Origin: Candidatus Heimdallarchaeum aukensis
GTDB lineage: Archaea; Asgardarchaeota; Heimdallarchaeia; Heimdallarchaeales; Heimdallarchaeaceae
Reading direction: 5' to 3'
Length of the DNA stretch: 64,000 bases
Assembly: GCA_021513695.1 (NCBI GenBank)
Contig: CP084166.1
Location: 224,001-288,000, forward strand
Shown: positions 54,274 to 61,393 of the stretch, piece by piece
How positions within the stretch are numbered: the first letter of the stretch is position 1
Layout: each line of letters opens with the position of its first letter
Program-made: the position numbers and the translations under genes
The notes under the pieces: generated by a model
What the model was told of the DNA's origin: nothing
The model's input: the letters and a program-made list of their open reading frames with translations, nothing else
Databases searched by the model: none

Positions 54274-54909
54274 ATGATTGAAATAGTTTTTTTGAATTTC
54301 TTGAATCTCTTTGTTAAAATATGGCTATCAGCTCTTTTAATTAATATTCTACTTTCCACTCTCTTAAAACCAATTTATAAACATCTGTTGGCAATAGGCT
54401 TGGTTTTCAATTTACCAATTAAGCGACTATTTTATTGGATCTATAGAGTACCCATTGAGAATATAGATTGGGAAAACGGTCTAATTAGAACAAAGAAAGT
54501 GAATAATATGGATTGTCTAGCAACTACAGTTGTGATCATGCCTGTATTTATTTTAAGCTACTTATCTAGTTGGTTATTCTATTTTGCAGGTAAAATCTAT
54601 CCCTATGGTTACAAGTTCTTTGGAATTGTTCTTTATATTGTCGCTTCGTTAAGTCTAGCTTTCAGTATTCCTAACTTTGAGGAATTGAAATTGTTTAATA
54701 ACATTAATCTTCATTCCTCTTTGGTCTATTTACTAAAATGGGTATTTGTAGTTATAGTTGTCTTTTCAATAGTTGAGTTTACTTCTATCTCTCTTGATGT
54801 ATTAACTACAGTGATATTAGTTCTTTTAGCTACTCCATTTTATAGTTATAAAGAAGATGAAGAAAATGTAGAGAATATTAAGAAAATTATTGGTGATCCA
54901 TTTGCATAA
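54274..54909 (+). CDS. Membrane protein (5-6 TM), hypothetical
   Basis: 211 aa. Its 3' end overlaps the start of the downstream ATPase gene by 20 nt, which suggests translational coupling. Confidence 0.5.
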   Translation: MIEIVFLNFLNLFVKIWLSALLINILLSTLLKPIYKHLLAIGLVFNLPIKRLFYWIYRVPIENIDWENGLIRTKKVNNMDCLATTVVIMPVFILSYLSSWLFYFAGKIYPYGYKFFGIVLYIVASLSLAFSIPNFEELKLFNNINLHSSLVYLLKWVFVVIVVFSIVEFTSISLDVLTTVILVLLATPFYSYKEDEENVENIKKIIGDPFA

Positions 54910-55525
54910 ATGGACTCTTTCCAAAAATGAGCGAATGATACATCTTTATGGTCCCCCAGCAAGTGGTAAGACTACTTTAGCAATTCAATTATCTAGAAAA
55001 GTCTTTCCTCGCTCAACAATTTATTTCATTACTTCGCATAGAAACGCAATTACAAAAAGAGCAAAACAGATACTAAACAAGAATTATCTTAAAGAATTTT
55101 ATTTAATTAAAGTTTCTAGTTTAGATGATTTATTTGAAAAAATTCAATCTATTAATAGCTTAGGAAAAACAATAGGATTGATTGTAATAGATTATATCTC
55201 TGATTTTGTTAGAGGGAAGCTATACAAGGAAGAAGTAAAAAACAAGGTAAGGAAGATATTAGAAAAACTTTTTATTTTCTCCTCACAAAAAGATTGTTTA
55301 GTTGTGATAGTCAATAGTTTTTCAATAAAAAATGAAGCTCCTTTGAATTCTTTAGTTGAAAGTTTTTGTGACATGTCAGTTTATTTGTCGATTAAAGATG
55401 ACAAATACAATTTGGAATCAAATGGTAAAAATATAAAAAGAACTTTTGTAGTCGATGAAAAAATTATTTCCAGCTTCGTTATTGATGAAAAAGGAATTAA
55501 AGATTTAATTATTGTGTCTGAATAA
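54890..55525 (+). CDS. RadB/KaiC-like RecA-superfamily P-loop ATPase
   Basis: 211 aa. Walker A 'LYGPPASGKTTLAIQL' (archaeal RadB has YGPxxSGKTTLALQ). Walker B 'GLIVIDYISDF'. C-terminal 'EKGIKDL' resembles the RadB C terminus. The true start may be the internal Met (MIHLYG). Confidence 0.65.
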   Translation: MVIHLHKWTLSKNERMIHLYGPPASGKTTLAIQLSRKVFPRSTIYFITSHRNAITKRAKQILNKNYLKEFYLIKVSSLDDLFEKIQSINSLGKTIGLIVIDYISDFVRGKLYKEEVKNKVRKILEKLFIFSSQKDCLVVIVNSFSIKNEAPLNSLVESFCDMSVYLSIKDDKYNLESNGKNIKRTFVVDEKIISSFVIDEKGIKDLIIVSE

Positions 55526-55585
55526 ATTTTTTTCCTTTAAATAGTATTCTTTAGATTAACTAATAAAAAAGGAAGTCAATGGTTA

Positions 55586-59269: not shown

Positions 59270-59281
59270 AAAGGGAGAAGG

Positions 59282-61393
59282 ATGAATGAAATAGAGTTAA
59301 GTTCTGAAAAACTAGAGGATTTTCAACAGAGGTGTATGGAAACTTTTTTGAAAAAAGAAAATTGCCTTATTTCTTCTCCTTCTTCTACAGGAAAAACATT
59401 TCTAGTTAAAGAATATATTAAAAATTACATTATAGAAAACTACTCAACTATTCTACGATCTCCTAAAAAAATGAAAATAGTGCTACTGTTTCCTTATAAG
59501 GCGATTGCTATACAAGAATTTAACTCACTAGTCGATTTTGCAGAAAAAAAGATGATCAAGATATTCTTATCTGTTGGAGGAGTAAAGTTAAACAAAGAAA
59601 CAGTAATGGAAGCAAATATTATTGTTGGAACATTTGAAAAGTTTTACTTCATTTTGAATCTATTCCCTGAAATTCAAAAGAACTTGAAAATATTGGTAAT
59701 AGATGAATTTCACTTTTTAGGTTATAATAGGGGAAAAGTGATAGAAAGTATATTATTAAAAGTTAAGGAAAACAAAAATACACAGATTATTCTTTTATCC
59801 TCATCAATCGGGAATCCTGAGGAAATAGCAAGTTGGTTAGGCTTTAAACTTTTGCAATATAATAAACGCTTAGTACCGTTGGAATTGAATATAAAAAAAA
59901 TTGAAAAATCTCTTATACAAGAAATATTTTCAATCAGCAAAGCTAACTTACCTGCTATTATATTTCAAAACTCAAGATCTAAAGTAGAAAAATTAGCTCT
60001 AGAATTAGCAAAAAAAAGAAAAGATGTATTGATAAAGAATTTCGAAGAGTTTTTCGTAAATTCTCCTAACCTTATTTCAATAATGGAAGAAGTTTATTTC
60101 CCTGATAAACTAAAAGAAGCAATTTCAAAGAGAGTGGCTTATCATCATGCAGGTTTAAGTGATATAGTTAGAGTATTTGTAGAACAATTATTTCTTTCTG
60201 GAGAGATTGATTACTTGATTTCTACTTCCACTCTGTCAGCTGGAATAAATCTTCCAGCTAAAATGTCAATTTTTGTTATAGAAAGAAAACAATCTGAAGT
60301 TGATAATAATTTAATTTTTCAAATTCTGGGGAGAGCAGGAAGATTTGAGTTTCAAGATAAAGGAATAGGAATTCTATTAATAAGACCAGCTTATTTGAAA
60401 GAATATAGCGACAAACTTTTTGACCAAAGAGGAAAACCTATTTACAGTAGTTTAAAAAGCCAATTTTTTGACTATGATTTTTTGATCAAATATTTTCTGG
60501 TAGAAATCGCATTTTCTAAGGAACCTGTTTCAGTAAGGATAGAAGATTTATTAAAAAAAATCGAGAATTCACTATGGTTTTATAGTAACAAAGAAATATT
60601 CTTAGTATTTAACTCTAAAGATGTTCATTATGCACTTTTTTCTCAAGCCTACTCAAGTTTGGATTATGAAGAGATAGTTGATTATTATGAGAAATTAGAT
60701 GAAGCTTTTGGTATAAAGCCTTCTAATTTACAACTCGTTTCTAAGCAAGAAAAAGGCAAAGGTAACTTCTCTTTTATAATTTTAGAGAATGAAAAAAAAT
60801 ACAAAGTAATTATGAATTTAGAAAGAAGACAATGTTCTTGTCAGTCAAAGTACAGCAATTATCTTTGTAGACATCAGCGTTTTTTGATTAAGATGTATCC
60901 TTTCATGAAAGAATATTGGTTAAATAAATATGGAATAATCGATTGGCTGATCGATAATGGTTTTTTAGTTAGAAGCAAAGGAATGAAGGTTAATCCTACT
61001 TTATTGGGAAAAATTTCTGCAAAATTTTTTATTCACCCTTATTCTTTTCTTCATTTTCTTCATTTATTAATTATCTATCCTAACATTAACTTTTCCTCTT
61101 TTTTTACTAAAGTTGTTCTATTCGATGAACAAATAAAGAGAGATATTAAGTCAAATGAACTAACAAATATACAAGCTTTGCAAATATTTCAACTATTAGT
61201 AAAACAAGAACCATTAACAATATGCTCAAAATACAATATTTCAGACAGTCTATTAGAAAATTGGCAAGAAATATATACCAAGTACAAGAGTTTATTTTTT
61301 GAATTAAAGAAACTTATGGGAAAAAATCTAGCAAAAGGGAACTTTACAAATAATTTCCTCACGAAAAATGAAGTTGAAGAAACAATTCGTTAA
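59282..61393 (+). CDS. Ski2/Hel308-like SF2 (DExH) helicase with C-terminal SWIM-type zinc finger
   Basis: 703 aa. Motif I 'SSPSSTGKTF', II 'LVIDEFHFL' (DExH), III 'LSSSIGN', V 'ISTSTLSAGINLPA', VI 'QILGRAGRFEF'. 'RRQCSCQSKYSNYLCRHQ' matches CxCx8CxH. Confidence 0.8.
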   Translation: MNEIELSSEKLEDFQQRCMETFLKKENCLISSPSSTGKTFLVKEYIKNYIIENYSTILRSPKKMKIVLLFPYKAIAIQEFNSLVDFAEKKMIKIFLSVGGVKLNKETVMEANIIVGTFEKFYFILNLFPEIQKNLKILVIDEFHFLGYNRGKVIESILLKVKENKNTQIILLSSSIGNPEEIASWLGFKLLQYNKRLVPLELNIKKIEKSLIQEIFSISKANLPAIIFQNSRSKVEKLALELAKKRKDVLIKNFEEFFVNSPNLISIMEEVYFPDKLKEAISKRVAYHHAGLSDIVRVFVEQLFLSGEIDYLISTSTLSAGINLPAKMSIFVIERKQSEVDNNLIFQILGRAGRFEFQDKGIGILLIRPAYLKEYSDKLFDQRGKPIYSSLKSQFFDYDFLIKYFLVEIAFSKEPVSVRIEDLLKKIENSLWFYSNKEIFLVFNSKDVHYALFSQAYSSLDYEEIVDYYEKLDEAFGIKPSNLQLVSKQEKGKGNFSFIILENEKKYKVIMNLERRQCSCQSKYSNYLCRHQRFLIKMYPFMKEYWLNKYGIIDWLIDNGFLVRSKGMKVNPTLLGKISAKFFIHPYSFLHFLHLLIIYPNINFSSFFTKVVLFDEQIKRDIKSNELTNIQALQIFQLLVKQEPLTICSKYNISDSLLENWQEIYTKYKSLFFELKKLMGKNLAKGNFTNNFLTKNEVEETIR

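Follow-up and report, generated by a model that had tools for sequence, protein, structure and literature searches.

A lineage-conserved array of recombination-protein paralogues linked to envelope proteins in Candidatus Heimdallarchaeum aukensis

Among the known archaea, Heimdallarchaeia rank with those most closely related to eukaryotes. The window analysed here is a stretch of 64,000 nucleotides (nt) from Candidatus Heimdallarchaeum aukensis (contig CP084166.1, positions 224,001 to 288,000; coordinates below count from its first letter). An earlier model-made note on this DNA, referred to below as the original prediction, described at 54274-61393 a module of five genes for a membrane protein, a RadB/KaiC-like ATPase, a nuclease-like protein, a giant protein resembling HerA/FtsK without a P-loop, and a Hel308-like helicase with a SWIM zinc finger. 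These five genes form the centre of a larger array, which sequence comparison shows to be a set of recombination-protein paralogues that is conserved within the lineage and linked to the envelope. The literature searched yielded no published description of the array, nor any paper that joins SWIM, Hel308 and Asgard. Its genes are not mentioned in the account of Heimdallarchaeum mobile elements by Wu et al. 2022, and the array is not part of a census of Asgard defence systems (10.1101/2023.09.13.557551).

Gene order and inheritance of the array

The five open reading frames (ORFs) were all recovered on the + strand, at 54274-54909 (the membrane protein, mem211), 54890-55525 (the RadB-like ATPase), 55586-56056 (the nuclease-like p156), 56114-59269 (the giant) and 59282-61393 (the helicase), and are real genes as predicted. 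The G+C content is uniform at 26-30% across the module (about 28% overall); because of this composition and the conserved orthologues, ORFs of 1051 and 703 amino acids (aa) cannot be due to chance. Neither tRNA genes nor Rfam families were detected anywhere in the window. The predicted boundaries were too narrow, since the conserved unit extends from p614/p471 to RadA2/Ig, covering about 41578-63276 in the window.

The array was surveyed by tblastn and clustering over 35 related loci. It is present once per genome, with 26 loci in about 25 (at least 25) species-level Heimdallarchaeota genomes at 24-45% identity. Nine conserved families are arranged on one strand in the order p614 - p471 - mem211 - RadB-like - p156 - giant - helicase - RadA2 - Ig, the last encoding a surface glycoprotein of about 2100 aa with immunoglobulin (Ig)-like repeats. 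Two tight sub-operons can be distinguished, one comprising p614, p471, mem211 and the RadB-like gene and the other p156, the giant and the helicase, while the RadA2-Ig pair comes next in most genomes. Within the first sub-operon, p471 and mem211 possibly overlap or are separated by no more than 9 nt, and mem211 may overlap the RadB-like gene in 12 of the 13 orthologous loci and also in a distant variant, L048. The coupling of the membrane-protein and ATPase genes proposed in the original prediction gains support from this overlap, kept across deep divergence. The spacer between the two sub-operons, from the RadB-like gene to p156, is typically 40-72 nt (about 55 nt). Within the second, the giant and helicase genes overlap or are at most 12 nt apart. 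RadA2 starts 24-73 nt after the helicase in three loci, and the distance from RadA2 to the Ig gene is 1-14 nt in seven of eight distant loci.

In the window, the spacer between the RadB-like and nuclease ORFs is 60 nt (55526-55585) and that between the nuclease and giant ORFs 57 nt (56057-56113), one less than the predicted 58. The predicted 12 nt between giant and helicase was exact, with a Shine-Dalgarno sequence, GGGAGA, located 3 nt upstream of the helicase ATG. Both of the longer spacers are T-rich in the window clade and carry TATA-like boxes, TTTAAATA / TTTTAAAAA, whose sequence suggests internal archaeal promoters; in distant genomes the p156 and giant genes overlap, unlike in the window clade with its spacer. 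As to the overlap of mem211 with the RadB-like gene, its existence was upheld and its predicted length of 20 nt was not, for this length requires a TTG start at 54890. A gene caller applied to an identical contig chose ATG 54935, leaving zero overlap. Alignments of the orthologues continue 5' of the Met at 54935, and a Shine-Dalgarno sequence, GGTGAT (54892-54897), lies ahead of TTG 54902, an arrangement common to Ca. Heimdallarchaeum endolithica. On these two grounds an overlap of 8 nt, with the start at TTG 54902, is most likely.

The window clade has a permuted order, RadA2, three inserted genes, Ig, p471, mem211, RadB-like, p156, giant, helicase and p614, still on a single strand. The inserted genes (p384, p443 and p246) were found between RadA2 and Ig only in the window among the loci examined. 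Just upstream of the rearranged array lie a TnpB/Cas12f-like ORF with a TNB domain (33989-35443, - strand) and an IS481-type rve transposase gene (37854-38792, + strand), which may be related to the block permutation.

Pairwise identities of eight of the families correlate with each other (r = 0.86-0.99), indicating that these families share a single history. Genes without any functional connection might also lie side by side merely through shared descent within one archaeal family: most of the loci belong to a single family-level clade, and correlated divergence is expected for any vertically inherited genes. Such an origin does not account for the retention of gene order, strand and overlapping stop and start codons at identities of 24-45%, for the fact that all the blocks stayed together on one strand after the rearrangement in the window clade, or for the joint recurrence of both sub-operons and p246, in rearranged form, in a separately labelled lineage. 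We consider the absence of a functional unit very improbable.

This recurrence was observed on a pair of long contigs, of 100 and 246 kb, one of which comes from a metagenome-assembled genome (MAG) labelled Bathyarchaeia by NCBI. Both (L046/L048) carry a rearranged gene set in which the order of genes for a p614-like protein, a protein with two transmembrane (TM) segments, a mem211-like protein and an overlapping RadB-like protein is unchanged. The set further includes genes for p156-like, giant-like (without P-loop) and p246-like proteins and for a full Hef with the ERCC4 domain. In hhalign comparisons the probability was 99.0% for the RadB-like protein, 98.6% for mem211 (hmmsearch E 6e-25) and 93.3% for the giant; p614 reached 89.9% against proteins of 421 and 400 aa (E 1.7e-6). 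In addition, the nuclease-giant-helicase trio is present in a MAG named 'Asgard group' at 24-38% identity. The recurrence in the Asgard MAG and in the Bathyarchaeia-labelled lineage indicates that the two sub-operons, envelope proteins plus RadB-like protein and nuclease plus giant with a superfamily 2 (SF2) helicase, are old and recurrently associated.

RecA-fold proteins, nuclease-like protein, HerA-like giant and helicase

The product of 54890-55525 (+ strand; likely start TTG 54902) is a RecA-fold protein of 211 aa, retaining Walker A (GPPASGKTT, 54950-54976) and Walker B (LIVIDYISD). Profile and motif evidence thus agrees with its prediction as a RadB/KaiC-like ATPase. In all Heimdall orthologues, however, the catalytic Glu is lost (DTE to TSH), as is the Gln of TNQV (NQ to N(G/S)); the L048 relative retains STE and TNQV. 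Against the curated RadB model TIGR02237 the protein scored 53.6 bits over the full length (cutoff, 172.4), against NF006861 16.5 bits (cutoff, 278) and against RadB in the PDB (2cvf) only 21 bits, with near-threshold scores for AAA_25, KaiC and nSTAND3 of Pfam. Housekeeping RadB identity was rejected, given the scores far under the curated equivalog cutoffs and the loss of the catalytic Glu and the TNQV Gln, and the gene was always linked to the same neighbours. The protein is, by its motifs, an orphan RecA-fold protein which probably binds ATP and hydrolyses it poorly. In orthologues beyond the window clade the N terminus is extended by about 140 aa of low complexity (L030, 8410-8850; L011, 8470-8850; other distant loci) with two conserved motifs, ELNxxVDKIxENxE and PFxSVRYPTP, an extension that the window clade has lost.

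The second RecA-fold protein, RadA2 (41578-42669, + strand), is a paralogue of the RadA/Rad51 recombinase family, consisting of a helix-hairpin-helix domain and an ATPase domain with Walker A (GSPQSGKTQ), DTE and TNQV. It scored 175 bits against Pfam Rad51 and stayed under both NCBIfam RadA cutoffs (230 < 259; 204.5 < 361), and canonical RadA identity was therefore rejected. From these motifs RadA2 is divergent but catalytically intact. It forms a discrete Heimdall clade, in which the matches reach 337-777 bits, while all others, including proteins named RadA in their sources, drop to 185 bits or less; some sources label the members of this clade merely 'AAA family ATPase'. Two RadA clades in Heimdall MAGs have been reported independently, without genomic context (10.1101/2025.05.23.655837), and the RadA2 clade matches the second of these. 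The reported second clade is now placed inside a conserved array.

The 156-aa protein p156 (55586-56056, + strand) represents a nuclease-like family that is absent from Pfam and gave no match in NCBIfam, PHROG or PADLOC either. Its invariant residues are E4, K24, E25, R47-I48-D49, E64, E66-N67-G68 and H73-P74, of which E4, K24, E25, D49, E64, E66, N67 and H73 remain invariant down to the most distant relatives. In a confident AlphaFold model (predicted local distance difference test score, pLDDT, 89.4) the core takes the restriction-endonuclease-like fold of the PD-(D/E)xK superfamily, in line with the nuclease-like prediction. The modelled site has invariant D49 on beta2 and E64-A-E66 on beta3, with Glu at the position of the canonical Lys, and invariant K24 (beta1) and E4 (alpha1) might complete it. 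Nuclease activity is accordingly predicted as likely and not as proven, because the motif reads D...ExE instead of D...ExK. The nearest fold is that of DUF1052/PF06319 (structure 3dnx), a family tied to mitomycin-C repair (MmcB). At the sequence level the two families differ, for none of the nine p156 family members matched the PF06319 profile at E <= 1. One published account lists DUF1052/PF06319 only as a PD-(D/E)XK family and describes it as mostly alphaproteobacterial and unlinked to HerA-like or helicase genes.

The giant (56114-59269, + strand; 1051 aa) consists of a beta-rich N-terminal region (about aa 1-125), an ATPase-like core of HerA/VirB4/DptH type without a P-loop (about aa 230-575), a winged helix resembling RPA32C/MarR (about aa 620-690) and, towards the C terminus, a long helical region. 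Confidence in its AlphaFold 2 model was low overall, and only the ATPase-like core and the winged helix were interpreted. Searching 1.84 billion representatives with the family profile yielded 17 strong relatives and a weak tail composed mainly of DUF87/HerA proteins; PDB sequences gave no match to this profile. Profile-profile alignment with DUF87/HerA proteins reached 97.9% probability (E 4e-13), and DptH of the Dnd restriction system was the best structural match, with VirB4 among the best. The P-loop has suffered a deletion of five residues (GsTGsGKs to G-----DKK), leaving a degenerate remnant, YPILLCGDKKIRK (56864-56902, + strand), in which G257, D258, K259 and R262 are invariant; Walker A ([AG]xxxxGK[ST]) was found in none of 18 giant-family proteins. 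In the Walker-B-like strand, VIVVIDNAELFF (57506-57541, + strand), N or D stands in place of the catalytic Glu (DE to D(N/D)), the conserved Gln is changed to Ser, and the Arg finger is missing. The giant thus belongs to the HerA/FtsK/VirB4 superfamily at the level of fold and lacks the motifs of an active enzyme, confirming the P-loop-less HerA/FtsK-like prediction by profile alignment, fold and motif absence. From its sequence it is predicted to be a ring protein of HerA/VirB4 type whose motor has been lost and which does not hydrolyse ATP. The giant and p156 have close relatives in Candidatus Heimdallarchaeaceae alone; among them are those of Ca. H. endolithica PR6, in its closed genome (CP084167, about 95-119 kb), with identities of 82-95%. 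L037 encodes a giant-like protein that is very distant; the gene downstream of it is not recognisable as a helicase, and this locus was set aside.

The helicase (59282-61393, + strand; 703 aa) is an SF2 paralogue of Hel308/Ski2 type, matching Pfam DEAD (73 bits) and Helicase_C (34.7 bits). Its motifs I (SSPSSTGKT), II (DEFH) and VI (QILGRAGR) are intact and are conserved in 11 orthologues. NCBIfam models of the Hel308 type gave 131-161 bits, far under their cutoffs of 887-1216, and housekeeping Hel308 identity was rejected on these scores. Among PDB sequences the bit scores were 172 for ASCC3, 157 for Brr2, 148 for Hjm, 87-106 for Hel308 and 40 for HamB, Hjm (2zj2) aligning across aa 21-462. 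A SWIM zinc finger, CSCQSKYSNYLCRH (60833-60874, + strand; CxCx9CxH, aa 518-531), is inserted after the winged-helix region, and its Cys and His residues are invariant in the 11 orthologues. Although the Pfam SWIM profile (PF04434) scored 16.3 bits, below the gathering threshold of 19.6 (15.4 bits for the L030 orthologue), the intact motifs and the invariant CxCx9CxH bear out the predicted Hel308-like helicase with SWIM. The spacing, n = 9, is inside the range of 6-16 typical for CxCxnCxH, and Shu2 uses its SWIM domain to contact the Rad51 paralogue Shu1 (PMC5727457). In two loci the helicase orthologue is split into two ORFs (L007, 13675-15811, 136 + 588 aa; L033, 13095-15144, 342 + 380 aa), which could reflect a frameshift, an assembly error or pseudogenisation.

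Further upstream, p602 (39411-41219, + strand; 602 aa) is a relic of a Hef-type helicase and a peripheral member of the array. It scored 54.7 bits against NCBIfam Hef across the helicase part. Motif I and DEAH are lost, ILPENFMVNRF being aligned by BLASTP to VLPTGTGKT and IFLHADKS to YFDEAHRA of the full Hef of L048, and the ERCC4 nuclease domain is missing. Its orthologue is located upstream of the array in L008/L009.

Envelope proteins and their link to the enzymes

The membrane-protein prediction for 54274-54909 (+ strand) was borne out by TM prediction. The product, mem211, is a polytopic protein of 211 aa with at least four hydrophobic or TM segments and a conserved acidic C-terminal tail ending in DPF(A/GE). 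Directly before it, p471 (52849-54264, + strand) encodes an N-terminal hairpin of two TM segments followed by a sequon-poor domain of about 380 aa, which from TM prediction and sequon count is presumably cytoplasmic. Its orthologues precede mem211 in the same way in all 13 loci where they were found. The product of p614 (61432-63276, + strand) is an extracellular glycoprotein with an N-terminal signal/TM segment, 16 sequons and a C-terminal IP(F/L)(F/I)K.P...G anchor. Relocated downstream in the window, p614 is the first array gene in most genomes, and a genome scan detected its orthologues upstream of p471 in 11 distant loci at 24-29% identity.

The Ig gene of the window, Ig2121 (46426-52791, + strand), encodes an extracellular glycoprotein of 2121 aa made of Ig-like repeats, with an N-terminal signal/TM segment, a C-terminal TM anchor, 56 NxS/T sequons and Pfam matches to Big_1, Big_3_5, CarboxypepD_reg and MG4. 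Orthologues with 29-35% identity are located immediately 3' of RadA2 in distant loci. A wider gene set includes p246 (45683-46423, + strand), a membrane protein predicted to have four TM segments; its orthologue is present in L008/L009, and in L046-L049 a homologue is encoded beside the nuclease (hmmsearch E 1e-6 to 8e-12). No match was found for mem211, p471, p614, p384, p443 or p246 in Pfam, NCBIfam, PHROGs or PADLOC. Of these, mem211, p246 and p384 are polytopic; the published relationships of VirB6/CedA and VirB2/CedA1 type needed HHpred or structures for their detection (PMC9905601).

The enzymes could serve a purely intracellular repair of stalled replication forks or crosslinks, with components of the Hel308/HELQ, Hef/FANCM, Rad51-paralogue and MmcB-like kinds, the membrane and surface genes being neighbours of unrelated role or acting as no more than a tether. 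Interactions among RadB, Hjc and Hjm are established in Euryarchaeota. All enzymes of the array have paralogues among fork-repair or recombination proteins, the L048 variant includes a full Hef with ERCC4, and the nearest fold of p156 is DUF1052/PF06319. Two independent couplings between enzymes and envelope, namely the mem211/RadB-like overlap (12 of 13 loci and a distant lineage) and the RadA2-Ig distance of 1-14 nt, are however difficult to put down to accident, and the catalytic degradation of three components, the giant, p602 and in part the RadB-like protein, is unusual for a core repair pathway. A role of this kind is therefore judged unlikely.

Comparison with known systems and possible function

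The array resembles HerA-NurA, Hachiman and Ced/Ted in part and is a member of none of them, and the scores of its RadB-like protein, helicase and RadA2 all lie below the curated thresholds for the housekeeping families. As in HerA-NurA, which acts with Mre11-Rad50, a gene of the HerA superfamily adjoins a small nuclease gene, the two overlapping in most orthologous loci; both systems are linked to a recombinase of the RadA family, and the likely output of both is single-stranded DNA (ssDNA) for recombination. The giant lacks P-loop and catalytic Glu, is 1051 aa long and has an added winged helix and helical tail, while p156 shows the PD-(D/E)xK fold and not the RNase-H-like fold of NurA. No Mre11 or Rad50 is encoded in the window, and the array includes a Hel308-like helicase and membrane proteins. 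Membership was rejected because of the wrong nuclease fold and the dead ATPase.

Hachiman likewise combines a protein of PD-(D/E)xK fold with a Ski2/Hel308-like helicase in one operon, and its HamB profiles match the array helicase in two partial stretches. Membership in Hachiman was rejected, since HamA (DUF1837) is lacking, p156 not being a HamA, and the helicase stands closer to Hjm and ASCC3, among the cellular Hel308 and Ski2 helicases. The HerA proteins of HerA-DUF4297, Nezha HerA-Sir2 and TdpAB, and DptH of DndFGH, are as a rule active ATPases, and these systems tend to be distributed sporadically; the giant family, in contrast, is P-loop-less in every member and lineage-conserved.

In keeping with the anti-phage framing of the original prediction, the array might be a membrane-triggered system against viruses or plasmids, in which envelope proteins would detect an infection or the entry of DNA, in the manner of ZorAB in Zorya, and the nuclease, HerA-like scaffold and helicase would degrade the invading DNA following the logic of Hachiman or HerA-DUF4297. 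The architecture of nuclease, helicase and ATPases agrees with such a role, as do the PADLOC matches (HamB up to 116 bits, mad8 33 bits), the fold matches of the giant to DptH and defence HerA proteins, and the fast divergence of the envelope components (24-30% identity). In Ca. H. endolithica a restriction-modification pair, a BsaWI-like restriction enzyme and an N6/N4 methyltransferase, is located 3' of the p614 orthologue (L006, 17874-19985), directly beside the array. Few known defence systems have been reported in Heimdallarchaeaceae, and uncharacterised ones were suggested (10.1101/2023.09.13.557551).

The distribution of the array speaks against this role. It is a single-copy set which has kept its order and diverged in a correlated manner in about 25 species genomes and a second lineage, and several distant loci also share the upstream flank; homologues of the upstream neighbours in these loci (c9, c11 and c13) were not found in this window. 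Defence systems, in contrast, tend to be patchily distributed and mobile. The viral contigs of IMG/VR yielded no relatives and no PHROG signal was obtained, and a viral or proviral origin was rejected for these reasons. Elsewhere in the window the genes are those of an ordinary chromosome (acyl-CoA synthetase, TldD/PmbA, asparaginase, RibBA, GH38 mannosidase and Rce1-like proteases). The window is not a defence island, and the features typical of a mobile one are missing, the array being single-copy and syntenic with metabolic neighbours and without relatives on viral contigs. The enzymes are also tied in operons to an intact recombinase and to surface glycoproteins, and HamB, at 40 bits, is a far more distant match of the helicase than ASCC3, Brr2 and Hjm at 172-148 bits. 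The once-per-genome occurrence, conserved overlaps, correlated divergence and missing viral-contig relatives make a defence island a weak explanation; the anti-phage framing is thus unsupported, and a membrane-triggered defence function, still a serious rival, appears somewhat unlikely.

Envelope-linked DNA transfer offers a further comparison. Ted DNA-import loci co-localise with HerA and Rad50, which was read by the authors as import coupled to recombination (PMC9905601). Ced/Ted, a domesticated type IV secretion system, shares with the array the occurrence of membrane proteins alongside a VirB4/HerA-like protein. In the array this protein has no P-loop, and the family searches found neither a VirB2-like pilin nor a recognisable VirB6-like pore; membership in Ced/Ted was rejected on the missing P-loop and the lack of a pilin match. 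Unlike Ced/Ted, the array has a nuclease, a helicase, RecA-fold proteins and giant Ig-like glycoproteins as integral parts. On the eukaryotic side, HELQ associates with BCDX2, and the array shares with HELQ-BCDX2 and the Shu complex (Shu2/SWS1) degenerate RecA-fold paralogues, a SWIM finger, a Hel308/HELQ-type helicase and a Rad51-family recombinase. The likeness is one of motifs; in the array SWIM is fused into the helicase, and the membrane linkage has no counterpart in the eukaryotic Rad51-paralogue networks.

Based on these comparisons, the array may represent a vertically inherited chromosomal unit, encoding an envelope-anchored machine of nuclease, scaffold and helicase that feeds a dedicated RadA paralogue, possibly for the intake or exchange of DNA. 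We regard this as the preferred working model, held tentatively and short of probable. In such a machine, mem211 and p471 would hold the RadB-like protein, which would bind ATP and probably hydrolyse it poorly, at the membrane. The giant would act as a HerA-like ring or scaffold that does not translocate, positioning and regulating p156 as HerA does for NurA, DUF4297 and Sir2. The Hel308-like helicase would be the only motor, with 3'-5' translocation on ssDNA assumed, and its SWIM finger might contact a RecA-fold partner, either the RadB-like protein or RadA2, in the way that Shu2 contacts Shu1. The resulting ssDNA would then be passed to RadA2. The substrate would be DNA at or crossing the envelope, through intake or cell-to-cell exchange coupled to recombination. 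Such a substrate is favoured because cytoplasmic enzymes are tied twice in operons to extracellular glycoproteins, once through p614-p471-mem211/RadB-like and once through RadA2/Ig. Under intake or exchange, the array would be analogous in function to Ced/Ted plus HerA/Rad50, or to bacterial competence.

Several observations weigh against this model of an envelope-anchored machine. Conserved synteny among related genomes can outlast any shared function. Neither fold nor family could be recognised for the membrane and surface proteins, and no homologue of a pilin, a pore or a DNA receptor was identified among them. The VirB4/HerA-like protein, which is the import motor in Ced/Ted, is without P-loop here, and the overall pLDDT of its model was 52. 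Its best structural match (DptH) and sole PADLOC match (mad8) are defence proteins, the helicase matches the HamB profiles of PADLOC, in two partial stretches only, and the restriction-modification pair abuts the array, in the Ca. H. endolithica genome only.

If the genes do form one machine, it would be the first candidate for an Asgard system of DNA exchange or uptake, or else a new, lineage-fixed and envelope-coupled immune system. Either outcome bears on how the archaeal ancestors of eukaryotes organised recombination, ultimately sex, and dealt with foreign DNA, and p156, mem211 and the giant are three new protein families. A more far-reaching proposal, which we hold to be quite unlikely, is a dedicated apparatus for DNA exchange or intake in Heimdallarchaeaceae and at least one other lineage of sediment archaea, with Ig glycoproteins and a membrane complex wired to a private recombination toolkit of RadA2, RadB-like mediator, SWIM helicase, nuclease and motor-dead ring. 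If true, it would be a new kind of prokaryotic machine for mating or transformation, in which the logic of Rad51 paralogues, SWIM and HELQ-like helicases foreshadows the recombination-mediator networks of eukaryotes.

A few features of the surroundings are added here. A 245-aa ORF at 36858-37595 is a paralogue of p443 (44359-45690), neither having a family match. The downstream boundary of the array varies: where Ca. H. endolithica has the restriction-modification pair, the window (63489-64000; L001, 17376-20627) continues with a gene for a surface protein that exceeds 1084 aa and contains FG-GAP and TSP3 repeats. Genes for surface proteins of the NosD/beta-helix type, on the minus strand, are found repeatedly between the helicase and RadA2 or 3' of the helicase (L004, L007, L016, L020 and L025).

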